Shown: piece after piece, positions 1-21,642 of the stretch | Layout: each line of letters begins with the position of its first letter | How positions within the stretch are numbered: position 1 is the first letter of the stretch | Source: Eubacteriales bacterium | Lineage (GTDB): Bacteria > Bacillota > Clostridia > Oscillospirales > CAG-382 | Length of the DNA stretch: 64,000 nucleotides | Reading direction: 5' to 3' | Assembly (NCBI GenBank): GCA_045600105.1 | Contig: JAZRXG010000042.1 | Location: forward strand, 14,236-78,235 | Program-made: the position numbers and the translations under genes | Notes under the pieces: generated by a model | Seen by the model: only the letters and a program-made list of their open reading frames with translations | What the model was told of the DNA's origin: nothing | Database searches by the model: none

Positions 1-1551
1 CATTACATCGATGAAAGCAGCGGCTTTTTCATAAATCTGCGCAGAAAGATAATGGAAAACTGCGACAAATATCTCGGTGACGCTTCGTCGGTGGTCAAAG
101 CCATCACCATCGCCGACAGATCGGGGATAACGTCGTCCGACTACAAGCGGAACAGCCGCGCCGGCACGTCACACATACTCGCGGTGTCGGGGCTGCATCT
201 CACCATCGCGGTGATGGCGATATATTCATTCTTCAAAAAGAAGCTCGGCAACAGATACGTCGTGTGCGCTCTCGGCGCCGCCGTCGTATTCCTCTTTCTG
301 GCGGTATCGGATTTTCCGCTTTCTTCCGTGAGAGCAGGCATTATGCTCTGCCTGATGTTCGTGTCTGATCTTGTCGGCGAAAAACGCGACTCGTTCACGT
401 CGCTGTTCGCGGCGTTCGGCATTATACTGCTTTGCGACCCTTACGCGGTCGCTTCCGTTTCGCTTCAGCTTTCGTTCCTCGCGACTCTCGGCATCATCTC
501 GGTATCGCATTCGGTATCCGCGTTCGCGAAGCCCGAAACGGGGTTCGGCAAATTTCTTTATGAATACGCCGCGTCCCCGATCAGATTCACTTTGTCGTCT
601 CTCGTTTTCACGCTTCCGGTTTCTCTCACGTCGTTCGGGACGGTGTCGGTCATTTCTCCCGTTTCATCGGTCATCGTGAGCGTCATCTTTCCGTTCTGGC
701 TTTCATTCTCATATATTTTCTGCTTTTTGTCGCTCGTCTTCCCGTTCGCTTCAAAGCTGCTCGCCTGCCCCGTGGTTTTCTTTTCGGATATATTCGAAAG
801 CGTTCTCGACTTTCTGGCGTCGTTCAGATATTCTTCCGTGACGACAGACGGATGGAGCGGCAAACTCCTTCTGATAGTTTCGATTTTTTGTATTTTTGCG
901 ATGCTTATCATCAAAAAGAAGCGTTTCGCGATTTTGTTTTACGTTTCCGTCGTGGTAATGACGCTTGCCGTTTCGCTTCACATTTTCGTGTCGTCGTTTG
1001 AGGGGAGCAAAGCGTATTTTTACGATTCCTCCGACGGATACGCCGTGGTCGCCGTGTCGGGTAACGAATGTGTTTTCGTCGACGACGGAACCGGCGACGC
1101 CTTTGACTCGCTCGTGACAAGGGCGGGCAAAACGACGTGCGGAAAAGCCGTGTTCCGCGATCTCGACTCACGTTCGGTCGCAAAAGCAAAGTATTTCATG
1201 GAATGTATGGGAACGGAGGAGCTGTATTTCTTCCCTCCGGCGGACGAAGAAGAACGTTCGTGCCTTGACGCTATTTTATACTTGGCAAATGAAAACGGTT
1301 GTGATATAATATACAAAACGGTACACGTGCTGAACATCGGCGATATCACGCTGACGCTGACGACGAGCGGTACCGGGATATGCAGGAACGATTTTTCGGT
1401 CTGCGTTGCCGACGGCGACGTGACCGGAGGGCCGGTCTTTGAAGAAAAAACGGTGCTTCCGTCGTGCAACGCGGCACTTTCCGAGCTTTACGAAAACGCC
1501 TGCACCTACCCGAAAGGCAGCTTCACCGATCTGCTCGAACAGGAGAATTGA
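1..1551 (+). CDS. comEC: ComEC/Rec2 DNA-uptake channel protein (5'-truncated by the window edge)
   Basis: Frame is open from base 1. Competence-domain motif GTSHILAVSGLH, RAGIM, many TM segments, SLQLSFLAT. Lies directly upstream of holA, as is usual in Firmicutes. Confidence 0.9.
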   Translation, partial: HYIDESSGFFINLRRKIMENCDKYLGDASSVVKAITIADRSGITSSDYKRNSRAGTSHILAVSGLHLTIAVMAIYSFFKKKLGNRYVVCALGAAVVFLFLAVSDFPLSSVRAGIMLCLMFVSDLVGEKRDSFTSLFAAFGIILLCDPYAVASVSLQLSFLATLGIISVSHSVSAFAKPETGFGKFLYEYAASPIRFTLSSLVFTLPVSLTSFGTVSVISPVSSVIVSVIFPFWLSFSYIFCFLSLVFPFASKLLACPVVFFSDIFESVLDFLASFRYSSVTTDGWSGKLLLIVSIFCIFAMLIIKKKRFAILFYVSVVVMTLAVSLHIFVSSFEGSKAYFYDSSDGYAVVAVSGNECVFVDDGTGDAFDSLVTRAGKTTCGKAVFRDLDSRSVAKAKYFMECMGTEELYFFPPADEEERSCLDAILYLANENGCDIIYKTVHVLNIGDITLTLTTSGTGICRNDFSVCVADGDVTGGPVFEEKTVLPSCNAALSELYENACTYPKGSFTDLLEQEN

Positions 1552-1552
1552 C

Positions 1553-2593
1553 ATGGGACTTCCCGAACTCACTTCCAAACTGAAAACGAAAAATATCACG
1601 GGCGTATATTTCTTTTACGGCGACGAGGAATATACCAAGGATTTCTATATCCGCAAGCTCCGTTCATACTGTGATTCGGCGCCTTATCCCGAATACGCCG
1701 ACGTCGTATTGGACGGTTCGTCGCTGACGCCCGATTCTCTTGCCGACGCGATAGACACGCCGTCGTTCATGTCGGAATGGAAAATAATCGAGATCAACGA
1801 ATTTCCGCTGAACCAGACGCCGTCGCGGCTCACCGCCTACGCCGATATCCTTTCGTCCGTCCCCTACGGCGTCGCCGTTCTGTTCATCTACCGTTCGGGC
1901 AATTTTGACCCGTCGGTCTTTGCCAAAAACAAGGACGGTGCGAACGAGCTGCTTGATTTTTTTGAAAAATCGTGTGTCAACGTCGGTTTTGAGCTTCAGA
2001 CCGGCGACAAGCTCATCCAATGGGCGGCAAAGCATTTCAAAGCCGAAAAAGTCGAAATAACCGACAAGGCGCTGTCTTTTCTGCCCGAATACTGCGGGAC
2101 CGATATGTATATACTGTCGGGCGAGATAGACAAGCTCTGCTCGTTCTACAACGGAACGCCGCTAACCGAAAGCGACGTGAAGAACGTGTGCTGCTCCAAC
2201 AGCGACTACCGCCTTTACGACGTGGTCAACTGTCTGTCGTCGGGCAGCGTCAACCGTCTGAAAAGCGTTTACGACGGACTCGTCTGCGCCAAGACCGCGC
2301 CCGAAATGATACTCGGCACGGTTTCGGGATATTTCTGCGATATGCTCAGCGTCAAGACCGCTCTTGCCGAGGGAGTCCCGCCCTCCGACGTCAAAAAAAA
2401 GCTCGGTATGCAGGACTGGCAGTACAACCGCATGGTGTCTTCCGTCAGAAACGTGTCGGCACTTTTCATCAGCAACGCCATAAACGAGTGCCGCGAAGCC
2501 GACGCGGCAGTCAAGACGCACTCCTCGGACCCGTACGTAATGATAGAAATAATGCTTTTCAGGATATTGTCTTATGGAAAGAAAAAAGCTTGA
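1553..2593 (+). CDS. holA: DNA polymerase III subunit delta
   Basis: VYFFYGDEEY N-terminus, EIDKL motif, clamp-loader length. AGGAG RBS precedes ATG at 1553. Confidence 0.88.
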   Translation: MGLPELTSKLKTKNITGVYFFYGDEEYTKDFYIRKLRSYCDSAPYPEYADVVLDGSSLTPDSLADAIDTPSFMSEWKIIEINEFPLNQTPSRLTAYADILSSVPYGVAVLFIYRSGNFDPSVFAKNKDGANELLDFFEKSCVNVGFELQTGDKLIQWAAKHFKAEKVEITDKALSFLPEYCGTDMYILSGEIDKLCSFYNGTPLTESDVKNVCCSNSDYRLYDVVNCLSSGSVNRLKSVYDGLVCAKTAPEMILGTVSGYFCDMLSVKTALAEGVPPSDVKKKLGMQDWQYNRMVSSVRNVSALFISNAINECREADAAVKTHSSDPYVMIEIMLFRILSYGKKKA

Positions 2594-3170
2594 ACTCCGA
2601 TACCCCGTTGTCGTCGAAGGCAAATACGACAAGATGCGGCTCGCGTCTTTCATTTCGTCGCCGATAATAACGCTCGGCGGATTTTCGGCGTTTGGCAGCA
2701 AAGAAAAACTGACCGAGCTCAGGGTCTTCGGCAAAAACGGGCTCATTATACTGACCGACAGCGACAAAGCCGGCGTTTTCATACGCGGAAAGCTCAAAGG
2801 GCTGCTCGGCGGCGCGGAGCTCATAAACGTCTACACGCCCGTCATCAGGGGCAGCGACTCAAGGCGGAACCACGTCGTAAAGGACGGCGTCCTCGGAGTC
2901 GAAAGCGTTGACTCCGACCTGCTTTACGGTCTGCTTCTGCCGTTTGAAGGCGAAAGGAACGTTTCACCGTTCCTTACGAAAAGCGGAGCGTTCGCCGACG
3001 GGATATGCGGGCGCGAAAACAGCTCGGAAGTGAGAAAAGCGCTCTGCCGCGTCTGGGGACTGCCCGAAACGGTGTCGGCAAATATGCTCATAGACTATAT
3101 AAATTGCTTCACGGACGAAAAGACCTACCGTGAGACGCTCAAAAACATCGATATGGAGTCAGATAAATGA
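2574..3170 (+). CDS. rnmV: Ribonuclease M5-like TOPRIM protein (DUF4093 C-terminus)
   Basis: VVVEGKYDK and ILTDSDKAG TOPRIM motifs, GVLGVE C-terminal motif. Confidence 0.8.
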   Translation: MERKKLELRYPVVVEGKYDKMRLASFISSPIITLGGFSAFGSKEKLTELRVFGKNGLIILTDSDKAGVFIRGKLKGLLGGAELINVYTPVIRGSDSRRNHVVKDGVLGVESVDSDLLYGLLLPFEGERNVSPFLTKSGAFADGICGRENSSEVRKALCRVWGLPETVSANMLIDYINCFTDEKTYRETLKNIDMESDK

Positions 3171-4423
3171 AAACCGTTTCATTCTGCGCGCTCGGCTGCC
3201 GCGTGAATCAATACGAGATACAAGCCCTGCGCGAGCAATTCATACAAAACGGATATTCCGTCGTTCCGTTCGGCAGGGAGTGCGATGTTGCCGTCATAAA
3301 CACCTGCGCCGTCACGAAGGAAAGCGAAAAAAAGTCACGTCACACCGCGTCTTACGCGTCGAAGCACGCGTCAAAGGTGGTCATCACGGGCTGCTTTGCC
3401 GAGCTTTGCCGCAAAAGCGGCGCTTTTCCCAACAACGTCTATTATTGCGGCGGCTGCAGTATGCGTGACAAGCTGTTTGACGTGTGCGAAGGCAGGACGA
3501 CCGCATACTCCGAAAAAACCGCCTACGAGCCGCTTTCGATAGGCAACACGGGGGCTCTCCCCAACGAACGGTTCCGCGCCTATGTCAAGATAGAGGACGG
3601 CTGCGACGGAAGATGCGCCTACTGCATAATCCCGTCGCTGCGCGGCAGGTCGTACGTGAGGGACGAAAGCGACATAATCGAAGAGATAAAACGGCTTGCC
3701 GCCGTCGGCGTTTCGGAAATAATACTCACGGGCATCGAGGTGTCGGACTACGGCACGTCGTCCCTTTGCTCGCTCATCAAAAAAGCATCTGAAATTGACG
3801 GTATAAAACGCATCCGCCTCGGCTCACTCAACCCGAACACGGTCAGAGCCGAGTTCATCGAGTGCATCAGATCAATGCCGAAATTCTGCCGTCATCTGCA
3901 TCTGTCCGTGCAATCGGGCTGCACGAAGGTGCTGAACTCCATGAAACGCCCGTACAGCGCCGAAAAGCTGAAAAACGTCATCGCTTCCCTTTACCAAGAA
4001 ATCCCGGAAATCATGTTGACTGCCGATATCATATCGGGATTTCCCGGAGAAAGCGAAGAGGATTTTGAAGAAACGCTTGAATTCATAAAGCGGAGCCGTT
4101 TCATGCACGTTCACGCGTTCCCGTATTCGCCGCGTCCCGGAACGGTCGCCGCCGGGATGGACTGTCAGATCCCCGAGGATATCAAAAAAAGACGCAATTT
4201 AACGATAATCGAGGAATCCGAAAAAACAAAAAAAGAACTCGCCCTGTCGCTTGTGGGCAAACAGGTCGAGATACTGGTCGAAAAAAACGTTTCGTCGGTC
4301 TCATACGGTCACACGGACGGATTCATGGAAGCGAAGATCGAAAACTCGTCCGCGAAAACCGGCAGCTACGCCGTATGCACCGTGACGGGATTCGACGGCG
4401 TGCTTATCTGCAAAGAGGTGTGA
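3167..4423 (+). CDS. mtaB: tRNA t6A37 methylthiotransferase MtaB (radical SAM)
   Basis: LGCRVNQYE, INTCAVT, KIEDGCDGRCAYCIIP (CxxxCxxC), HAFPYSPRPGTVAA, C-terminal TRAM-like region. Confidence 0.92.
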   Translation: MKTVSFCALGCRVNQYEIQALREQFIQNGYSVVPFGRECDVAVINTCAVTKESEKKSRHTASYASKHASKVVITGCFAELCRKSGAFPNNVYYCGGCSMRDKLFDVCEGRTTAYSEKTAYEPLSIGNTGALPNERFRAYVKIEDGCDGRCAYCIIPSLRGRSYVRDESDIIEEIKRLAAVGVSEIILTGIEVSDYGTSSLCSLIKKASEIDGIKRIRLGSLNPNTVRAEFIECIRSMPKFCRHLHLSVQSGCTKVLNSMKRPYSAEKLKNVIASLYQEIPEIMLTADIISGFPGESEEDFEETLEFIKRSRFMHVHAFPYSPRPGTVAAGMDCQIPEDIKKRRNLTIIEESEKTKKELALSLVGKQVEILVEKNVSSVSYGHTDGFMEAKIENSSAKTGSYAVCTVTGFDGVLICKEV

Positions 4424-4424
4424 T

Positions 4425-5462
4425 ATGAGTTACGGTTTCAAGGACGCTTTCCTTCCCGACGGCATCGTCGGAAGCGACGGCATCGGAGTCGGAAGGTTCA
4501 GAACGAACGACCCGACTGTATTCGGTCTTTTCAGGTCTTTCACCGAAAAAAAGGGCGGCTCCGAAGGCGTGGTCTATCCATACGAGCTCAACGTATTCAC
4601 GCTCTTCAGGCATAAAAAGTGCTTTTTCCGTCCGACGGACGTGATATACACGGCAGACGAAATAACGTCGTTCAAAGACGCGTCGAAAAAAGCGTGCTTT
4701 CTGTCGGTCGGTCTTTACGAGCTGTTCGTTTCGTGCCCGTCGTTCACCGTCGACACGTCGCTCGTCGGCAGCTCCGACGTCTCTTCCCTTGCCGAAAGGC
4801 TGTATTTCGTAATTCCCGCGGCAAAAAAACGGCTTGTCAAAAAAATCTCGTTCTTCACGTCTGGGCTCAGAAAATGCGGCGTGGTAACGTCCGACGGTAT
4901 GATACGCTTCATTGTGAACGGGGATGCCGAGGAATTTGAAAAATCGTCCGTTCCCGCCGAGCAGCCCGTTACTCTCGTATCCCACGAAAACGGCAGCTTC
5001 AACGCCGGCTGCTTTGACGCGTTCGGCGAATATCTCGCAAAACTCACGAGATACGTCTTCCCCGCCGAATTCAGGTCGAGATCCGTCTTTAGTGACAAAT
5101 TCACGTACAAGCTCGGCCGTCTTGCCGTATCGTCACGCATACCGTCAGACAAACGCCGCACTTTCGGCGGAGAAACGGGCGTGAATCACACGGGGTTCCA
5201 CGTTTCGGTCATCCCGCTTCATACGGTCAACGGCATATTTCCGAGCGACTACGCGTTTTCGCTGCTCTCCGCGCTGAGGAACGAAGAAACGCTCCACAAC
5301 TACTGCGTATTCAGCGCGTTCAGCGGCAGGCTTGAAGATTATGTAAACCGCCATCCCATTGAATCGGACAATGAAACGGCTGTACCCCGATCGGACGGCG
5401 GATACGTTGTGATCATATCCGACACGCCGACGGCGTACAGCCATATAGGACGAATTATCTGA
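4425..5462 (+). CDS. Hypothetical protein (345 aa)
   Basis: Long ORF starting 2 nt after the mtaB stop with a GAGG RBS. No family motif recognised. Confidence 0.65.
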   Translation: MSYGFKDAFLPDGIVGSDGIGVGRFRTNDPTVFGLFRSFTEKKGGSEGVVYPYELNVFTLFRHKKCFFRPTDVIYTADEITSFKDASKKACFLSVGLYELFVSCPSFTVDTSLVGSSDVSSLAERLYFVIPAAKKRLVKKISFFTSGLRKCGVVTSDGMIRFIVNGDAEEFEKSSVPAEQPVTLVSHENGSFNAGCFDAFGEYLAKLTRYVFPAEFRSRSVFSDKFTYKLGRLAVSSRIPSDKRRTFGGETGVNHTGFHVSVIPLHTVNGIFPSDYAFSLLSALRNEETLHNYCVFSAFSGRLEDYVNRHPIESDNETAVPRSDGGYVVIISDTPTAYSHIGRII

Positions 5463-5464
5463 GT

Positions 5465-6529
5465 TTAATATTTTATGCCGTTGAGGATCGAGTACATCTC
5501 ATCCCACTTTTCTTCCATATCGGCAACGAGTTTGAACTGCGTACGGGTCCGGACCAGATTGTGGTCCGGGCTTTTTATGCGGAAATAAACGTCGCCCTCG
5601 ATATAGTCGGTGAGGAATCTGACGCCGCATTCGAGAGTCATGAGCTTAGCGCCCCAGGGGAGAAGCTTGATCTCGTTTTCGGTGAGCGATCTGCCGCAGG
5701 CGGTAAGGAAGCCCTCGGCGTAGGTCTTGTAAAGAGACGGCACGAAGTTGACCTTGGAAAGGTCGCGTTCGTCTTCGGCGGCGCTGCTTGCGCCGAACCG
5801 GATGGAATCGCCGAAGTCGTTGACGGAAAGTCCGGGCATAACGGTGTCAAGGTCGATGACGCAGAGCGCTTTTCCCGTTTTTTCGTCAAGAAGGACATTG
5901 TTGAGCTTGGTATCGTTATGAGTGACGCGGAGAGGTATCTCGCCTTTGGCAAGGGCGTCAACGCAGACGTGAGCGTCGGCTTCGCGGTCAAGCGCGAACT
6001 TGATCTCATTGAGCACGTCCTTGACTCTGCCGCATTTGTCCGCTTCGATCGCCTTGCGGAATTTGCGGTATCTGTCGGGAGTGTTGTGAAAATCGACTAT
6101 CGTTTCGTGGAGCTTGGAAGCGTCAAAATCGGCAAGGCTGCGCTGGAACATACCGAATCCGTACGCGCTCTCGTAAAAATCGCTTTCTTTTTCGACTTTT
6201 TCAAGGCATACGCTGCCCGTTATGAAGTCGTAAATTCTCCAATAGCAGCCGTTTTCGTCGTTGTAGAAGTTCTTGCCGTCAACGGTTTTGATAACGGTCA
6301 TCGCCTCACGCGGGTCGTTCGCCTTGGAAGCGATGTGAGCGCATACGGCAGCCACGTTCTCCATGAGAAGGTCGGGACGCTTGAATATGTTGTGGTTGAT
6401 CTTCTGCAGAATGTACTTTCTGCCGTCGTCGCATACGACGAGATACGTTTCGTTGATATGTCCGTTGCCGTAGCGTTCGCAGCTTACGGGAGTCGACTCA
6501 AGGCGGAATTTGCTTAAAATTTCTTTCAT
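5465..6529 (-). CDS. nahK: N-acetylhexosamine 1-kinase-like (NahK/LnpB; APH phosphotransferase fold)
   Basis: GNGHINETY, YILQKIN, FHNTPDRY, RVTHNDTKLNN, IDLDTVMPG, DFGDSIRFGA, LECGVRFLTDY, HNLVRTRTQ follow Bifidobacterium NahK as I recall it. Confidence 0.8.
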   Translation of the reverse strand: MKEILSKFRLESTPVSCERYGNGHINETYLVVCDDGRKYILQKINHNIFKRPDLLMENVAAVCAHIASKANDPREAMTVIKTVDGKNFYNDENGCYWRIYDFITGSVCLEKVEKESDFYESAYGFGMFQRSLADFDASKLHETIVDFHNTPDRYRKFRKAIEADKCGRVKDVLNEIKFALDREADAHVCVDALAKGEIPLRVTHNDTKLNNVLLDEKTGKALCVIDLDTVMPGLSVNDFGDSIRFGASSAAEDERDLSKVNFVPSLYKTYAEGFLTACGRSLTENEIKLLPWGAKLMTLECGVRFLTDYIEGDVYFRIKSPDHNLVRTRTQFKLVADMEEKWDEMYSILNGIKY

Positions 6530-14945: not shown

Positions 14946-16694
14946 TTATTTGTAGAATTCAGCCTTCTTGAAGGATACCCAGCCAAGGTTGGAGTAGAGG
15001 AAATCCTTAAGACCGGTATTTGCGAGGTACGGGTTGGTGTAGTAGTAAAGAGGAAGGATGGTGTAGGTATCGCGGACCCATTCTTCTGCTTCATACATAA
15101 GTTCAGCACGTTTTTCGGGATCGGCTTCGGTCTTGATCTTGCCGATGAGTTCATCGTAGCCTGCCCAGGTCTGTTTTCCGTCGGGTCCGTAGATGGCAGC
15201 GCTGCCCTTTTCACCGTCTTTGCCGAGGTGAGGATGGTTGTTGCCGGAACCGGAGAGAAGGATCTCGAGGAAGTTTACGGGGTCATCATAGTCGGCGATC
15301 CAGCCGAGACGGCACATAGTGAAGTCGCCTTCGGTAAGAGCGGTCTGGATAACGGACCAGGTACGGGTATCGATGGAAACTTCGATGCCGTATGCGGACC
15401 ACTGGCTCTGGATAGCTTCGGCAATAGCGGTATTGCCGGAAGTCGGGTTGATGGAGTATTCGAATTTGGGGATGTCGGTGAATTTGCCGGAAGCTTCGTC
15501 GTAGGTGTAGTATTTCTTGAGGATCTCTACAGCTTCGGCTCTGTTGGATTCGAGGTCGGCTTTGTCGACGCTCCACCATTTTTCAGCTTCTTCACGGAAG
15601 ATCTTGCCATTTCCGTCGCCCATTCCTGCGGGAACGAAGCCGTAAGCGGGGGTCTGACCCGCGGCGGTGATGTTTTCAACGATGTAGTTACGGTCGATGA
15701 GGAGAGAGAGCGCGTATCTGATTTCAGCGTCCTGCGGTTCGGTGAAGGTCTTTCCTTCGGGAGCGAGAGATCTTTCAACGTTGAATTCAAGATAATAGGT
15801 TCCGATGTAGTCGCCGATGAAGAAGTCTTTGTTGAATCTGTTGGCGTCTGCTTTGAGAACGGGGATCTGAGCTACGGGAACGGTGGTGGTGTACTGGATG
15901 GTACCGTTGGTGTAGTTGGCGAAGATAGCGTCGTCGTCGTCAGAGAGGAAGTATTTGAGGGTTTCGAGTTTTACGGAATCAGCATCCCAGTAGTTGGGGT
16001 TCTTTTCGAAAACGATGTCGGAGCCTACGGTCCAGGACTTCATTCTGAAAGGTCCGTTGCAGATGTAGGTCTCGGGTTTGGTTGCCCAAGCGTCGTTGCC
16101 TTCAACGATGTCTTTGCGAACGGGATAATAGGTCGGGAAAGCGAGGAGCTGATCGAAATAGCTGCAGTAAGCACCGGTAACGATGGTGATGGTCTTTGCA
16201 GCGTCGTCTGCAACTACGTTGAGGCTGCAGTCGTCTTCATAGGAGAAACCGTCGATGACGTCGAACATATAGCAATAGTCAGCAGCGGTAGCGGGAGAAG
16301 CGGCTCTCTGCCAGGAATAAACGAAATCGGAAGCCTTGAGTTCAGCGCCGTCGGACCATTTGAGGCCGTCTTTAAGAGTAACGACGTACTGATACTTGCC
16401 GCCTTCGAGAGCGGTCGGTTTGACGATTTCCTTTGCGCATTCGGCAATGATAACGGGTTTGCCGTTTGCGTCTGCTTCGTAGCCGTAAAGGCCCGCGAAA
16501 GCGTTGGTGAGAACGATGGCGCCGTCAACGGAAGAGTTGAGAGCGGGATCAAGGGTCTCGGGGTCGGGTCCTACGCATACGGTGATAGCTTTTTCACCGG
16601 TATACTCGGTAGGTTTTTCTTCTTCAGTGGCACAGCTTGCAAGAGCAACGGTCACCATGAGAAGAGCAAGAACGAGCGCGAAAATTCTTTTCAT
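14946..16694 (-). CDS. oppA: Oligopeptide ABC transporter substrate-binding lipoprotein
   Basis: Lipobox LASC, ETLDPAL, WSDG..LKASDFVYSW, NGPFRM, KNPNYWD, GWIADYDDP. Confidence 0.92.
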   Translation of the reverse strand: MKRIFALVLALLMVTVALASCATEEEKPTEYTGEKAITVCVGPDPETLDPALNSSVDGAIVLTNAFAGLYGYEADANGKPVIIAECAKEIVKPTALEGGKYQYVVTLKDGLKWSDGAELKASDFVYSWQRAASPATAADYCYMFDVIDGFSYEDDCSLNVVADDAAKTITIVTGAYCSYFDQLLAFPTYYPVRKDIVEGNDAWATKPETYICNGPFRMKSWTVGSDIVFEKNPNYWDADSVKLETLKYFLSDDDDAIFANYTNGTIQYTTTVPVAQIPVLKADANRFNKDFFIGDYIGTYYLEFNVERSLAPEGKTFTEPQDAEIRYALSLLIDRNYIVENITAAGQTPAYGFVPAGMGDGNGKIFREEAEKWWSVDKADLESNRAEAVEILKKYYTYDEASGKFTDIPKFEYSINPTSGNTAIAEAIQSQWSAYGIEVSIDTRTWSVIQTALTEGDFTMCRLGWIADYDDPVNFLEILLSGSGNNHPHLGKDGEKGSAAIYGPDGKQTWAGYDELIGKIKTEADPEKRAELMYEAEEWVRDTYTILPLYYYTNPYLANTGLKDFLYSNLGWVSFKKAEFYK

Positions 16695-16750: not shown

Positions 16751-17725
16751 TTATTTTTCGAAACAGGCGACTTTGTGTCCGGGAGAACGCTCGGTAAGCG
16801 ACGGGCATTCGGCGGCGCACCTTTCGGTGGCGTGGGGACATCTCGTCCTGAACGGGCAGCCGCTCGGTACGTTGAGCGGGCTCGGCACATCGCCTTCGAG
16901 AACGATGCGCTGTCTCTTTCTTTCAAGCTCGGGGTCGGTGATGGGAACGGCTGAAAGAAGCGAGGTGGTATAGGGATGTATGGGGTTGCGGTTGAGCTCG
17001 TTCGCGGGAGCGATCTCGACTATCTTGCCGAGGTACATGACCGCGATATCGTCGGAAATGTGCTTGACGACCGAAAGGTCGTGAGCGATGAACAGATAGG
17101 TGAGTCCGCGTTCCTTCTGAAGGTCCTCGAACATATTGATCACCTGCGCCTGAATCGACACGTCGAGTGCCGATACCGGCTCGTCGCAGATTATCATTTC
17201 GGGGTTCATGGCAAGCGATCTCGCGATGCCTATCCTCTGGCGCTGACCGCCCGAGAATTCGTGGACGTATCTCGTCGCGTGTTCGGACGAAAGTCCCACG
17301 GCGTCCATCAGTTCCTTTATCCTGCGAGCGCGTTCCTCTTTCGTGGCGCACATCTTATGCACGTCGAGGGGCTCGGCGATGATATCGGAGACCGTCATTC
17401 TGGGGTCAAGGGACGAATATGGGTCCTGAAAGACCATCTGCATTTTGCTTCTCAGTTCCTTGACGTCCTTGCGCGTCTTTATCTCTTTGCCGCGGTAGAT
17501 GATGTCGCCGCCGGTCGGCTCGTACAGATACATGAGAGTACGTCCGACGGTGGTCTTGCCGCAGCCGGATTCGCCGACGAGTCCGAGCGTTTTGCCCGCC
17601 TCGATCGAAAAGCTGACGCCGTTGACCGCCTTGAGCTGTTTGGATTTGAAAAATCCGCTGTTGATGGTAAAATACTTTTTAAGGTCTCTGACCTCAATAA
17701 GCGGTGTTTTGATTTCTTCACTCAT
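16751..17725 (-). CDS. oppF: Oligopeptide ABC transporter ATP-binding protein
   Basis: GESGCGKTT Walker [27 protein letters not shown]-terminal GCPFRTRC...C...HKVAC. Confidence 0.93.
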
Positions 17726-18734
17726 TGTTGTCAGCTCCTTTCCCGCCGTTTGCTTCGGCTTCCGCCAGAGCCTTCACGTTCATCCAGCAGCTCGCGCTGT
17801 GGATGCCGCCGAATTCCATGCAGGGCGCTTTTTCGGCAAGGCATATCTTCATGCAGTTGGGGCATCTCGGCGCGAACGCGCAGCCTGCCGGCATACTGAG
17901 AAGATCGACCGGTGTACCCGCGATGGGGATGAGCCTTGTCTTTTCGTCGGACGCGATATTGGGTATCGACGTGAGCAGGCCCTTGGTGTATTCGTGACGC
18001 GGCGAATAGAATATGTCGTTGGCGCTTCCGCTTTCGACAATCTTGCCCGCGTACATTACGTTGATCTTGTCGCACATTCCGGCGACCACGCCGAGGTCGT
18101 GCGTGATGAGGATTATCGCCATACCGAACTGTTTCTGAAGCGACTTCATAAGCTCGAGTATCTGCGCCTGGATGGTGACGTCGAGCGCCGTGGTAGGTTC
18201 GTCGGCAATGAGGATGTCGGGCTCGCAGACGAGCGCCATGGCGATCATCACGCGCTGACGCATACCGCCGGAAAGCTCATAGGGATACTGCTTCATACGC
18301 TTTTCGGGGTCGTTGATGCCGCAGAGCGTCATCATTTCGACCGCTCTGTCGTAAGCCTGCTTCTTATCTCTGTCGGTATGGAGTCTTATGGCTTCGATAA
18401 GCTGGTTGCCGACCGTATAGACGGGGTTAAGGCTCGTCATCGGGTCCTGAAAAATTATGCTGATCTTGTTTCCGCGAATGGAGTGTATGACTTTTTCGTC
18501 ACAGCCGACGAGCTCCTCGCCGTCGACCTTTACGCTGCCGCCGACTATCTTGCCGGGGCTCGTGAGGATCTGAAGGATGGAGTAGGCGGTGACGCTCTTT
18601 CCCGATCCGGATTCGCCGACGATGCCGAGCACTTCGCCCTTGTCAAGGTCGAACGAAACGTCGTCGACAGCCTTGACCTCGCCGGAATGGGTAAAGAAGG
18701 ACGTTCTTAAATTTCTGACTTCCAAATAACTCAT
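17718..18734 (-). CDS. oppD: Oligopeptide ABC transporter ATP-binding protein
   Basis: [50 protein letters not shown]. Confidence 0.93.
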
Positions 18735-18755: not shown

Positions 18756-20549
18756 TTACGATTTTTCACGAAGCTTGGGGTCAAAGGCGTCGCGGAGTCC
18801 CTGACCAAGCAGGTTGAGTGAAAGAACGAGAAGGAATATGATGACCGCGGGGAGTATGAATAGGTATCCTCTGCCATCGATCGTCATCTGTCCGCGGTAG
18901 TTGGAAGCAAGCGAGCCGAGGCTGGGCATGGGGATGGAAACGCCGATGCCGAGATAGCTGAGGAAGCTTTCGGTGAATATCGCGGAGGGTATCTGCAGAG
19001 CCGCCGAAATGAAAATGACGGAAATGCAGTTGGGAAGCATGTGCTTGAATATTATCCAGCGTGCGGGAGCGTCGCAGGCCTTTGCGGCAAGGACGAATTC
19101 CTGCTCTCTGAGGGAAAGCACCTGACCTCTGACGAGGCGCGCCATGCCGACCCAGTAAAGGAGGGCGAACACGATGAGGATGCTCACGAGTCCGACGCCG
19201 CCGAGCTTGTCAACGACGGAGGAAAGAGGACCGTTCTGGAAAATATCCTTGAAAGCGACGGAAAGAAGGATGATTATGAGCGTGTCGGGAAGCGAATAGA
19301 TGATATCGACGATACGCATCATGACAAGGTCGACTTTTCCGCCGAAATAGCCGGAGATCGCGCCGTAAAGCACGCCGATGATAACGACGACGACCGCCGC
19401 GATTATACCGACGAGGAGGGATACACGCGTTCCGACGATGATCCTTATCGCATAGTCGCGTCCGAGCTCATCGGTGCCGAGTATATGCGGGAACACGCTC
19501 TTGGTCTCTTTGGTGAGAGACGCGGCGGCAGGAACGACAGCGTCGCCCTTTGCGTATTTGAAATCGTCGACGGGAGCTTTTTCGTTGCTCATATTTCCGT
19601 CGAAAGTGAGTCTGTATCTGTCGGGTTTGCTCTTGCTGTTGTATCTGTAATTGACGGAAGCGCCTTCGTCGGCGACGCCGTCACCGTCGGAATCGGCTGC
19701 CCAGACGGCATAAAGCGTGGTATCGGACGAAACCGCGAAGTTCTTTGCGATGACGTCTTCGCTGTAAGTATCGTAATTGGACGCGTCGATCACGGGAAGG
19801 TCTGACTTAAGAGACCAGCCGGTGAACACGGCGCCGTCTTTTTTGAAGTCACCCGTTTCGTTGCTCGGGGTGATCTTGTCGGTCGAAACGTATTCGAAGG
19901 TGTCTTCGGGGAGAGTTCCCGTGCCGCCGTTCAGATCGTAAGTGATCTTGTATCTGGGAACGAGAACGCTTTCCGCGGTATTGTTGAAAAGGTCCGCGCC
20001 GAAATCGGCTTTTCCGTCGCCGTTCTTGTCAACGCCCCATACGGCGTAAAGCTCGCAGGTCGAATCGGAGAACGTAAGCGGAGCGGTAACGAAGTATTCT
20101 TTGACTTCGTTCAGATATTCTTCGCTGTCGATGACGAGAAGTCCGTGATAATGAGTGATGTCGTCTTTTCCGAGCGACCAGCCCATAAACACGGCATCTT
20201 CTTCCATAAGGATCTTTTCACGCGGTGAATACTCGAACGGGCCGAGAAATTCGCCGGCGATACTGTCGCGGCTGCCGGAGCTCGTACTGTAATCGTACGG
20301 ATAGAAAAGCGGAACTATGAACGCCGTGAGCGTGAGGAACACGACGATTATGAGGCACGCCATGGAAAGCTTGTCCTTGCGGAGCCTGCGAAGGCTGTCC
20401 TTGAGGAAGCTCGTGCTTTCACGCATGTGGTCCTGCTGCGCTTTTTCCTCATCCGTGGCAAGCTCGAACTTGGAAAGATCGAGCTGCAGGCTGAACGGGT
20501 TCTTTTTCGGCATTTTGTCATTGGGTCTGTTGGAATTCATTTCAGACAT
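18756..20549 (-). CDS. oppC: Oligopeptide ABC transporter permease OppC with a ~230-aa extracellular InlB-B-repeat-like insert
   Basis: OppC N-terminus (SFLKDSLRRLRKDK), HILGTDELGRD, EFVLAAKACDA, HMLPN, ESFLSYLG. 597 aa versus about 300-350 for typical OppC. Confidence 0.88.
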   Translation of the reverse strand: MSEMNSNRPNDKMPKKNPFSLQLDLSKFELATDEEKAQQDHMRESTSFLKDSLRRLRKDKLSMACLIIVVFLTLTAFIVPLFYPYDYSTSSGSRDSIAGEFLGPFEYSPREKILMEEDAVFMGWSLGKDDITHYHGLLVIDSEEYLNEVKEYFVTAPLTFSDSTCELYAVWGVDKNGDGKADFGADLFNNTAESVLVPRYKITYDLNGGTGTLPEDTFEYVSTDKITPSNETGDFKKDGAVFTGWSLKSDLPVIDASNYDTYSEDVIAKNFAVSSDTTLYAVWAADSDGDGVADEGASVNYRYNSKSKPDRYRLTFDGNMSNEKAPVDDFKYAKGDAVVPAAASLTKETKSVFPHILGTDELGRDYAIRIIVGTRVSLLVGIIAAVVVVIIGVLYGAISGYFGGKVDLVMMRIVDIIYSLPDTLIIILLSVAFKDIFQNGPLSSVVDKLGGVGLVSILIVFALLYWVGMARLVRGQVLSLREQEFVLAAKACDAPARWIIFKHMLPNCISVIFISAALQIPSAIFTESFLSYLGIGVSIPMPSLGSLASNYRGQMTIDGRGYLFILPAVIIFLLVLSLNLLGQGLRDAFDPKLREKS

Positions 20550-20565
20550 TTTTCCGCCCTCCCGT

Positions 20566-21522
20566 TCACGAGAAATCCACACGGTGATCTATGACCTTGT
20601 AAAGCACGTCGCTTATAAGGTTCATGGCGAGCATAAGCACCGAAAGAAGCACGGTGGTGCCCATTATCATCGTGTAGTCGAGGTTTTTGATGGAATCTAT
20701 GAAATATCCGCCGATACCGGGGACCGAGAAAATGCTTTCAACGACGAAAGAACCGGTAACTATGTACGCGATCATCGGGCCCGCGTAGGAAATGACGGGG
20801 GCAAGCGAGTTGCGGAGCGCGTGCTTGAAGAGCACCTTTCTTTCGGGGACGCCCTTTGCTCTCGCGGTCCTGATATAGTCCTGACCGAGCGAATCGAGCA
20901 TGGAGGAACGCGTGAGACGGGTTATGTATGCCGCGGGATAGAGCGAAAGCGCGATAATGGGAAGAATGAGTCCCATAAACGAGCCTTCACCCGCGAGTAT
21001 GCTCTGTATCGAGCTGCCCATGGACGGAAAAACCCTCCATTTGACGGTGAGGGTCCAGAGCGCGATAACGCCGATAACGAACGACGGCACCGAAACGGAA
21101 GCGGTCGAAAGTATGAGTATGAGCTTGTCCTGCCATTTTGAGCGCTTGATGGCGGCAAGAGAGCCGAAGATGAGCCCGATTATGATGGCGAGGATCGCGG
21201 CGCTGAGACCTATGAACGCCGAAGTCGCAAAGCCCTGCATAACGAGGTCTATCACGTTGAGGCCTTTATAATAAATGGACTGACCGAAATCGAGTTTTAC
21301 CGCGTTTTTAAGATAAATAAGATACTGCGTGCCGAGCGGCTTATCGAGCCCGTATTTTGCGTTGAGGGCGTCCATCGTAGACTGAGGGATGGCCTTCTCG
21401 CCGACGAAGGGGCTGCCCGGGACGGCGTGCATGATGAAAAAGGTAACGGTGATTATGATGAAAAGGGTGAGCAGCGCAAGCCCGAGTCTTTTCAATATAT
21501 AAATCAACATTTTTTTATCCAT
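20566..21522 (-). CDS. oppB: Oligopeptide ABC transporter permease
   Basis: YILKRL, PGSPF, YGLDKPL..QY, DYIRTARAKG, HALRNSL, VESIFSVPGIG. Start chosen from the AAGGAG RBS. Confidence 0.92.
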   Translation of the reverse strand: MDKKMLIYILKRLGLALLTLFIIITVTFFIMHAVPGSPFVGEKAIPQSTMDALNAKYGLDKPLGTQYLIYLKNAVKLDFGQSIYYKGLNVIDLVMQGFATSAFIGLSAAILAIIIGLIFGSLAAIKRSKWQDKLILILSTASVSVPSFVIGVIALWTLTVKWRVFPSMGSSIQSILAGEGSFMGLILPIIALSLYPAAYITRLTRSSMLDSLGQDYIRTARAKGVPERKVLFKHALRNSLAPVISYAGPMIAYIVTGSFVVESIFSVPGIGGYFIDSIKNLDYTMIMGTTVLLSVLMLAMNLISDVLYKVIDHRVDFS

Positions 21523-21642
21523 ATCGCTCACTCCTTACATACCGGATACTGCTAAGCGTTTTTTGCATCGCGGTCCGCGGTCCGGCATTTTAGCCCCGAA
21601 AAATGGCGCCGCAAAGCCGTATGCAGACGCAGATACATTTTA

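Follow-up and report, generated by a model that had tools for sequence, protein, structure and literature searches.

What is a stretch of surface-protein repeats doing inside a peptide permease? The question is raised by oppC, a gene in the 64,000 nt of DNA analysed here from an uncultured clostridial gut bacterium of the Eubacteriales (the window; positions given below are window positions). On the minus strand, positions 19506-20198 translate to a 231-aa insert which lies between the first and second transmembrane helices (TM1 and TM2) of the encoded permease and is flanked by PFEYSPREKILMEE and TKSVFPHILGTD. Type I ATP-binding cassette (ABC) importers are usually drawn with bare permeases. 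We propose that the OppC of an otherwise ordinary operon acquired a 231-residue piece of a tandem-repeat surface protein in P1, the first loop on the extracytoplasmic side, which links TM1 to TM2. The cut would have fallen within the tight beta-hairpin in the middle of a repeat unit, giving the chain order C-terminal half, linker, whole unit, linker, N-terminal half; the outer halves would rebuild one circularly permuted domain, with the N and C termini side by side at the hairpin. With adjacent termini, such a module would fit a short loop without strain, and the intact unit would ride along as a second domain. We hold this structural and evolutionary account to be highly probable. The explanation as a whole also assigns the module a role beside the binding protein OppA, and is favoured with moderate confidence.

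The insert reads DAVFMGWS...GDGKAD, YKITYDLNGG...GDGVAD and YRLTFDGN...SLTKE, i.e. the C-terminal half of a repeat unit (the N piece, which runs from DAVFMGWS to LYAVWGVDKNGDGKAD), a full central unit and the N-terminal half of a unit (the C piece). This half-full-half arrangement had been described in an initial annotation of the DNA; it is confirmed by translation, by Pfam and by a hidden Markov model (HMM) of the unit in 32 homologues. Each of the 32 long homologues was cut into N piece, linker 1, central unit, linker 2 and C piece, and a unit HMM of 95 positions was built from the 32 central units; match ranges are those of the eight rows printed. The HMM matches all of the N pieces (median 32 bits), at positions 40, 41 or 42 to 95, and all of the C pieces (median 25.5 bits), at positions 1 to 33 or 37. 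If the C piece is artificially joined to the front of the N piece, all 32 products match with a median of 66.8 bits, and the printed rows contain a single match over positions 1-95; in the native N+C order they contain two separate matches. The join is seamless: ...SLTKE/DAVFMGWS... lines up with ...DFKKDGAVFTGWS... of the central unit. The xAVW unit ends are 112 aa apart (range 110-130), and the median insert, at 232 aa, is two periods long. Judged from these alignments, the insert comprises two periods of the repeat, with the cut at the K-[DE]/[DG] turn of the beta-hairpin; its outer halves are exactly complementary and stand in swapped order relative to the native unit, as in a permuted domain. 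The annotated claim that exactly two periods were inserted in frame, cut at the KE/DG turn, is thus borne out by the complementary halves, the 112-aa spacing and the 232-aa median. Identity between the central unit and the re-joined outer unit is 31-50% (median 39%); the units are therefore old and diverged and do not stem from a recent duplication.

The central unit matches the Pfam family Flg_new (PF09479, the Listeria-Bacteroides repeat), to which the InlB B-repeat belongs, over positions 1-64 of the 65-position profile; it scores 26.8 bits within full-length OppC and 27.4 bits if the insert is scanned by itself (gathering score 27). A precomputed PF09479 match is present in only 9 of the 32 homologue clusters, and databases give these proteins generic names. 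Flg_new also matches 16 of the 32 re-joined C+N sequences at E <= 0.01; in the re-joined sequence from the window, residues 1-52 align to profile positions 1-46 across the artificial junction. Weak matches to FG-GAP_3 and Excalibur, both below threshold, fall on the Dx[DN]xDGxxD motif of the central unit. A motif of this kind closes each unit; the two, DKNGDGKAD and DSDGDGVAD, have the sequence D-x-[DN]-x-D-G with a further acidic residue where another ligand is expected (position 9 or 12). Ca2+ binding is plausible from the motif, and the insert is probably Ca2+-stiffened.

A model of the insert alone (AlphaFold2, AF2; 20-sequence alignment) has a mean predicted local distance difference test score (pLDDT) of 90.9 and a predicted template modelling score (pTM) of 0.79. 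In the AF2 model of full-length OppC (46-sequence alignment), pLDDT is ~80-90 in the insert and ~52-76 in the membrane part. The full-length model returned only permease matches from Foldseek; the insert was therefore modelled and searched separately. Against the Protein Data Bank (PDB), the top match of the insert model is the InlB B-repeat 2y5p_D (probability 0.99, TM-score 0.62 on the target, 25% identity), followed by 2y5p_A (probability 0.96, TM-score 0.54), InlB392 constructs and a Treponema denticola sialidase structure; the Foldseek output for 2y5p does not say which part of the insert aligned. By these matches the insert model has the beta-grasp fold of the InlB B-repeat, and the annotated B-repeat likeness holds both in the Pfam match at threshold and in the match to 2y5p. 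A PDB sequence search with the insert gave nothing meaningful.

In insert numbering, the central unit of the model consists of strand 85-88, bridges 119-120, strand 123-129, helix 142-148 and strand 160-168. The outer unit mirrors it with strand 197-200, bridges 229-230, strand 2-8, helix 26-35 and strand 48-56; the termini (2-8 and 229-230) thus mirror the two-residue hairpin 119-120/123-129 that ties the halves of the central unit. Both termini of the insert are in beta structure, with pLDDT of 81-91. Because both ends are confidently beta, pTM is high for 231 residues and the central halves are tied by the hairpin, the outer halves are predicted to pack together as a single permuted domain, with its new termini side by side at the hairpin. 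The initial annotation had suggested such a domain with adjacent termini; the pTM, the beta termini and the central-unit-like pattern fit that suggestion, and the packing itself is read indirectly from the model. It is conceivable instead that an outer half pairs with whichever central half adjoins it, giving two permuted domains in a row, or that the outer halves are disordered; the AF2 alignments are shallow (20 and 46 sequences). This is very improbable. The two-residue hairpin joins the central halves, so they must share a sheet; free ends are hard to reconcile with a pTM of 0.79 and with pLDDT above 80 at either end of the chain; and a rod with distant ends would misfit a loop whose flanks, in OppC without the insert, are separated by a few residues.

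Two things would favour an assembly artefact, namely a chimeric contig in which oppC was fused with the gene of a surface protein: the DNA comes from a metagenome-assembled genome, and repeat proteins misassemble readily. Among 5.8 billion proteins searched there are 32 clusters of long forms (585-623 aa) from differing sources and contigs, with 57-100% identity over 96-98% of the query; the next best matches are 357-aa OppCs which match in the membrane parts only. All long forms share both boundaries, and in the alignment the insert replaces a loop of ~8 residues between ...YS.RE... and VFPHILGTD. A 2250-nt contig from an independent gut-metagenome study spans positions 19300-20400 with ~94% identity and no indel, and contigs from three further runs cross one or both insert junctions without indels or joints. 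The reading frame is open, both flanks are conserved and the base composition of the insert is the same as that of its flanks. A chimera is excluded.

Some candidates for further insert-bearing OppCs were rejected. Many tblastn matches of ~1750 nt in genome contigs proved to be mostly normal OppCs of 350-380 aa with spurious upstream matches, as seen by open reading frame (ORF) extraction; the only genuine insert-bearing loci among them are L001-L003. The OppC homologue P0034 (531 aa) was considered as carrying a different insert; its surplus residues align as a TM2 region duplicated internally, which could be a misassembly or real.

The position of the insert on the transporter can be read from several features. 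In Foldseek, the TM core of the OppC model matches C subunits of solved transporters: 8z21_B from E. coli OppBCDF and 8j5q_C from M. tuberculosis OppABCD (E 1e-12, TM-score 0.64 on the target), and also those of Dpp systems. Both permeases of such transporters have six TM helices, and the TM1-TM2 region, as in DppB and DppC, is periplasmic (PMC12136057; PMC10954201). Twelve K/R residues precede TM1, versus three in the 35-residue loop after it; no hydrophobic segment was found at OppC residues 87-365; and the insert is acidic, with 41 D/E versus 20 K/R. Given the topology of the solved homologues, the K/R bias, the lack of a hydrophobic stretch and the acidic charge, the insert lies outside the cell membrane, in P1, as had been annotated. 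The Flg_new repeat therefore has an extracellular location, in the loop between TM1 and TM2 of an OppC whose N terminus is inside. This position is the pseudo-symmetric counterpart to the scoop loop in DppB and OppB. In the part of P1 that precedes the insert, P104 and E111 are invariant and Y107 and S108 nearly so in two alignments.

The origin of the insert was sought with an exhaustive phmmer search against 1.84 billion representatives, which gave 2504 matches with E <= 0.001, of which 680 reach E <= 1e-10. The top 150 consist almost entirely of large proteins (1000-7650 aa) in which the repeat is matched as many as 46 times; P0033 is the only OppC representative among these 150. Long stretches of the insert are collinear with these proteins (insert positions 2-214 in P0247, 3-179 in P0197 and 41-189 in P0123). 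The giant proteins carry the same unit followed by ...YAVWa.D.N.NG.pDY.E..., and successive motifs in their arrays are typically 93-140 aa apart. Counted with a loose pattern, the linker motif follows 13 of 18 unit ends in P0123, 20 of 24 in P0124, 16 of 20 in P0127, 9 of 9 in P0136 and 0 of 47 in P0122. P0247 ends in SLH-like repeats (judged by eye) and P0123 in a hydrophobic, basic tail. Since unit, linker and period are the same in the giant arrays, the insert appears to be a two-period slice of such an array, and giant clostridial Flg_new arrays are the likely kind of donor. Identity between the insert and the giant proteins is just 31-43%, so that no recent donor is visible. The DxDxDG motifs had been highlighted in the initial annotation as a Ca2+-binding feature of this OppC; they are present as Ca2+-loop sequence, and by comparison with the arrays they are the ordinary inter-unit linker of one giant-array sub-family and not special to OppC.

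A maximum-likelihood (ML) tree was built on the membrane core, with the insert columns removed, from 32 long forms, 14 near insert-less OppCs and 47 distant insert-less OppCs. An earlier unrooted tree could not tell one gain from one loss; this was resolved by the 47 outgroups. The long forms make up one clade (support 100/99), sister to the nearest insert-less group, and no loss of the insert was found among members of this clade; a single acquisition would suffice. Among species-representative genomes, the insert is found only in L001-L003 besides the genome of the window, and it is present in 2 of 151 sampled genomes of the window's family, both of the window's genus. Other members of the genus have an insert-less OppC with 61-65% identity over the TM core. 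In OppB and OppA identity, the window operon is closer to insert-bearing operons from other lineages (73-78% and 68-71%, respectively) than to the operons of insert-less genus-mates (~59% and 48%), which suggests paralogy or transfer of the whole operon.

The P1 loop of related permeases carries other large inserts. In the window's own genome, contig C30 encodes a second OppC-like paralogue of 526 aa (L093:1033-2610, minus strand) with an insert of ~230 aa at residues ~75-310; it too lies in the TM1-TM2 loop, is unrelated in sequence to the Flg_new insert and has no Pfam match. At least 1004 protein clusters (~517-536 aa; Clostridia and Lachnospiraceae) have an insert of this type, and they are named only 'ABC transporter permease'. 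It resembles the Flg_new class in insert size, loop and genomes, and is far more widespread (at least 1004 clusters versus 32). A genome of the same genus (G057) encodes an OppC-like form of 696 aa with an insert of ~390 aa in P1 (L094:1025-3115, minus strand), so at least three unrelated types of P1 insert occur within the window's genus. In Clostridia, P1 of the OppC-type permeases is thus a hot spot at which domains are added, and the phase-shifted module derived from Flg_new is the rare kind. The initial annotation knew of no described OppC with this architecture. For the Flg_new type this stands, as full-text literature searches found no paper on an OppC with such a loop domain or on a Flg_new unit in a transporter; since large unrelated P1 inserts are common in Clostridia, the general architecture is less unusual than was thought. 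A broader idea is that P1 is a general docking site for accessory domains in Gram-positive peptide importers, which would be active in the transport cycle by holding or gating OppA or by providing a second capture site; the Flg_new insert would then exemplify a new insertion route, in which an integer number of periods cut at a hairpin closes into a ring of domains with adjacent termini. We regard this idea as speculative.

Selection on the insert differs from selection on the core. Within the clade, mean pairwise identity is highest in the TM core, lower in the N piece, central unit and C piece and lowest in the linkers (0.31-0.34); dN/dS values against the same-genus orthologue L082, which are rough as dS is high, are likewise lowest in the core (Table 1). 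The best conserved elements of the insert are the helix motif GL.VIDSEEYL.EVK..FVT, the first Dx[DN]xDGxxD motif and the [FY]G..[LY]F that follows it. The helix is a candidate interaction surface. By these measures the insert is under purifying selection, yet evolves like an exposed surface module. Such relaxed constraint relative to the core would also be expected of a tolerated passenger, i.e. a fragment that folds by itself in a permissive loop, does no harm and contributes nothing to transport. The patchy distribution (2 of 151 sampled family genomes) and the readiness of P1 to take other large inserts (the second type with at least 1004 clusters and the 696-aa third form) are in keeping with a passenger. 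We consider it distinctly unlikely: the frame is open and both halves are intact in all 32 clusters, down to 57% identity; dN/dS of 0.18-0.28 is well below 1; the N piece has a clade-specific invariant motif; and the insert is retained throughout the clade.

If the preferred account of a permuted, array-derived insert is right, the transporter would bear on its outer face a module of two domains, acidic and probably stiffened by Ca2+, at the place pseudo-symmetric to the scoop loop. It might serve as an accessory beside the docked lipoprotein OppA, recruiting or orienting OppA or closing the side of the loading cavity, in the way that MalF-P2 does for MalE. MalF-P2 is a 186-residue Ig-like loop domain (residues 91-276) which reaches ~3 nm and binds MalE throughout the cycle with a Kd of 7-22 uM; it has been termed a unique extended periplasmic domain (PMC6906923). 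In DppABCDF, the TM1-TM2 region of the B subunit forms a scoop motif that enters the cleft of the binding protein (PMC12136057). By analogy with these systems, the module adjoins the place where OppA docks, yet is not at a known binding-protein contact. A MalF-P2-like role toward OppA is put forward only tentatively.

The module could also face outward and bind a wall or S-layer polymer, a host or dietary glycan or protein, or another cell, and so act as an anchor, positioner or adhesin. Outside extracellular multidomain proteins, Flg_new units are hardly ever found, and a part in protein-protein contacts is ascribed to them (bioRxiv 10.1101/2021.06.02.446819). The closest relatives of the insert are giant surface proteins, such as P0247 with its SLH-like end and P0123 with its hydrophobic, basic tail; P1 of DppC is not a known binding-protein contact; and fast, surface-like evolution fits an exposed binder. 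Two small domains near the membrane would, however, sit under the wall and be poorly placed for adhesion, and no B-repeat has a known ligand. Conservation in the insert is highest in the half nearest the membrane, which contains the IDSEEYL helix; this suggests that the contact is made within the transporter. On balance, an outward binder is unlikely.

Several points weigh against the explanation favoured here. The Flg_new score is right at the Pfam threshold, and the Foldseek E-values are modest, at ~0.02-0.1 for the B-repeat (0.02-0.14 with the InlB392 constructs) and 0.02-0.2 over all of the matches named. The contact between N and C pieces is deduced from pTM, pLDDT and secondary structure and is not seen in coordinates. 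The second DxDxDG motif, otherwise nearly invariant, is absent in P0008 and P0009. At non-synonymous sites the insert evolves ~25 times faster than the core, and dN/dS of the C piece reaches 0.57. Just 2 of 12 genomes of the window's genus have the insert; it is therefore dispensable for the lineage. In M. tuberculosis DppABCD, the binding protein contacts P1 and P3 of DppB and P3 of DppC; P1 of DppC is short and is not listed (PMC10954201). Lastly, no architectural change that tracks the insert was found in the OppA partners examined, and OppA is already lipid-anchored; all but one of these partners have a lipoprotein signal.

Some variation was seen in OppA itself. A loop of ~10 residues (positions 15700-15800, residues ~310-325) is missing in OppA of the window and of the insert-bearing L001 and present in the insert-less L005 and L012; these are too few for a correlation. 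The OppA proteins of closely related operons, ~68-71% identical, have two topologies. A segment of ~100 residues forms the C-terminal end in the window, L001, L098 and L099; in L002 (ORF 5173), L003 (ORF 6710) and L097:10891-12684, the homologous segment is found right after the lipoprotein signal, at residues ~16-127. From the sequences, this looks like a natural circular permutation within an orthologous group. Distant operons (e.g. L042) also have the second form of OppA, and the permutation does not track the OppC insert.

The gene order oppB-oppC-oppD-oppF-oppA in the window is that of an ordinary operon for a presumed peptide importer, and is kept in six other insert-bearing loci (L001-L003 and L097-L099). 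OppC is encoded together with OppB, two ATPases with an oligo_HPY C-terminal domain and an SBP_bac_5 binding protein. It is a permease of the OppC/DppC type, with an OppC_N TM helix (PF12911, 3.1e-13) and a BPD_transp_1 core (PF00528, 8.2e-29) with five further TM helices; in P0001 numbering, OppC_N, Flg_new and BPD_transp_1 are at 58-102, 211-292 and 403-605. The family also handles nickel, opines and other substrates, and oligopeptide is the presumed substrate here; the best NCBIfam models for OppC are those of the oligopeptide permeases Opp3C and Opp4C, both below cut-off (Opp3C 267.9 vs 450). The mechanical ORF of oppC, 18756-20582 on the minus strand, opens at GTG 20582 and overlaps the end of oppB. 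The true start is likely to be ATG 20549, just past the oppB stop, which has a GGGAGGG Shine-Dalgarno sequence 8 nt upstream; with this start the protein is 597 aa long. The database copy of this OppC (P0002) also has 597 aa and begins at the same position; a look-up of the exact P0002 sequence gave no record. Coordinates are collected in Table 1.

Table 1. Segments of OppC and genes of the opp operon in the window. Identity is the mean pairwise identity within the clade of long forms; dN/dS was computed against L082 and is rough as dS is high.
Feature	Position	Strand	Basis or remark	Identity	dN/dS
oppC	18756..20549	-	597 aa + stop; ORF translation, Pfam; Foldseek match of TM core to 8z21_B and 8j5q_C		
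TM1, residues 60-82	20304..20372	-	OppC_N, hydropathy and charge counts, AF2 helix 60-82; preceded by K/R-rich LRRLRKDK; N terminus inside		
P1 before the insert, residues 83-117, ending PFEYSPREKILMEE	20199..20303	-	conserved; also in insert-less OppC		
Whole insert	19506..20198	-	231 aa		0.28
N piece (C-terminal half of unit), residues 118-182	20004..20198	-	unit-HMM match; pLDDT ~90	0.54	0.18
Clade-specific helix motif GL.VIDSEEYL.EVK..FVT in N piece, residues 136-155	20085..20144	-	invariant or near-invariant columns; helix 26-35 of insert model		
First Ca2+-loop-like motif DKNGDGKAD (DxNxDGxxD)	20004..20030	-	alignment: D57, G62 and D65 invariant, D61 nearly so		
Linker 1, residues 183-199, FGADLF...	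19953..20003	-	start conserved, rest variable	0.34	
Central complete unit, residues 200-294	19668..19952	-	Pfam Flg_new 1-64/65	0.44	0.26
Second motif DSDGDGVAD (DxDxDGxxD) in central unit	19668-19694	-			
Linker 2, residues 295-311	19617..19667	-	variable	0.31	
C piece (N-terminal half of unit), residues 312-348, YRLTFDGN...SLTKE	19506..19616	-	unit-HMM match	0.43	0.57
TM2-TM6 core, residues 349-597	18759..19505	-	opens with conserved VFPHILGTD; BPD_transp_1, Foldseek, dN/dS	0.83	0.011
oppB, partner permease	20566..21531	-	321 aa		
oppD, ATPase	17718..18734	-			
oppF, ATPase	16751..17725	-			
oppA, lipoprotein substrate-binding protein	14946..16694	-	582 aa; lipobox LASC		

Peptidase genes (M18, M20) are found near the operon in two of the six insert-bearing loci of relatives. 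In L097, the insert-bearing operon has directly upstream of it (positions 1-5555) another complete opp operon, whose OppC of 350 aa lacks the insert; an M18 peptidase gene lies downstream. A single 227-nt metatranscriptome contig with ~95% identity was found, which is too weak to claim expression.

Taken as proposed, a presumed peptide importer has independently gained a folded module on its outside and kept it over a long evolutionary span. With P1 domains unannotated in more than 1000 clostridial clusters, accessory outside domains on Opp permeases may be a common and unstudied feature in gut Firmicutes, with consequences for peptide capture under a thick wall. The insert would also be a clean natural case for protein evolution: a two-period slice of an array, cut in a hairpin, has complementary ends and can give a permuted domain that fits a loop. 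The same principle could serve the engineering of domain insertions.

Among known systems, MalF-P2 of E. coli MalFGK2-E is like the insert in being a folded domain (~190-230 residues) that the permease of a type I ABC importer bears in a periplasmic loop, beside the docked binding protein. It belongs to another permease family, is located in the TM3-TM4 loop and not the TM1-TM2 loop, and is Ig-like where the insert has two beta-grasp units; it has no repeat origin, permutation or Ca-type motif. Its contact with the binding protein has been demonstrated, whereas that of the OppC insert is tentatively proposed by analogy. The scoop or P1 loop of DppB (E. coli DppABCDF, M. tuberculosis DppABCD) is in the same family and the same TM1-TM2 periplasmic region, but in the partner permease; it shows that binding-protein contact is possible for this region. 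The scoop has 30-56 residues in short helices and enters the ligand cleft, whereas the insert is a 231-residue two-domain module in the C subunit, whose P1 is short in solved structures and absent from the contacts reported there.

With the InlB B-repeat and PF09479 the insert shares the signature Y..TYD.NGG...F.GW...LYA.W, the structural match to 2y5p and an extracellular location; the OppC units differ from the InlB B-repeat in a longer helix segment between GW and LYAVW. Known Flg_new units form linear arrays in secreted or wall-anchored proteins, whereas OppC has two periods within a polytopic membrane protein, one of them split and, as modelled, permuted. The giant arrays (P0123, P0124, P0127, P0136 and P0247) have the unit, the Dx[DN]xDGxxD linker after YAVW and the ~93-140-aa period in common with the insert; unlike OppC, they are surface-anchored proteins of 1000-7650 aa and not membrane transporters. 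Circular permutation can arise by duplication and truncation, where a two-copy tandem that loses the start of copy 1 and the end of copy 2 gives a permuted domain (PMC3320104). The outer halves of the OppC insert have the identical relation of missing start and missing end. In the textbook model the middle becomes the permuted domain; in OppC the middle unit is native, and it is the ends, 112 residues apart and held by the host loop, that would form the permuted one. Type I ABC importer permeases with a domain in an extracytoplasmic loop are a known kind; what is new here is that the domain is built from a known repeat family in an unusual split-and-close arrangement.

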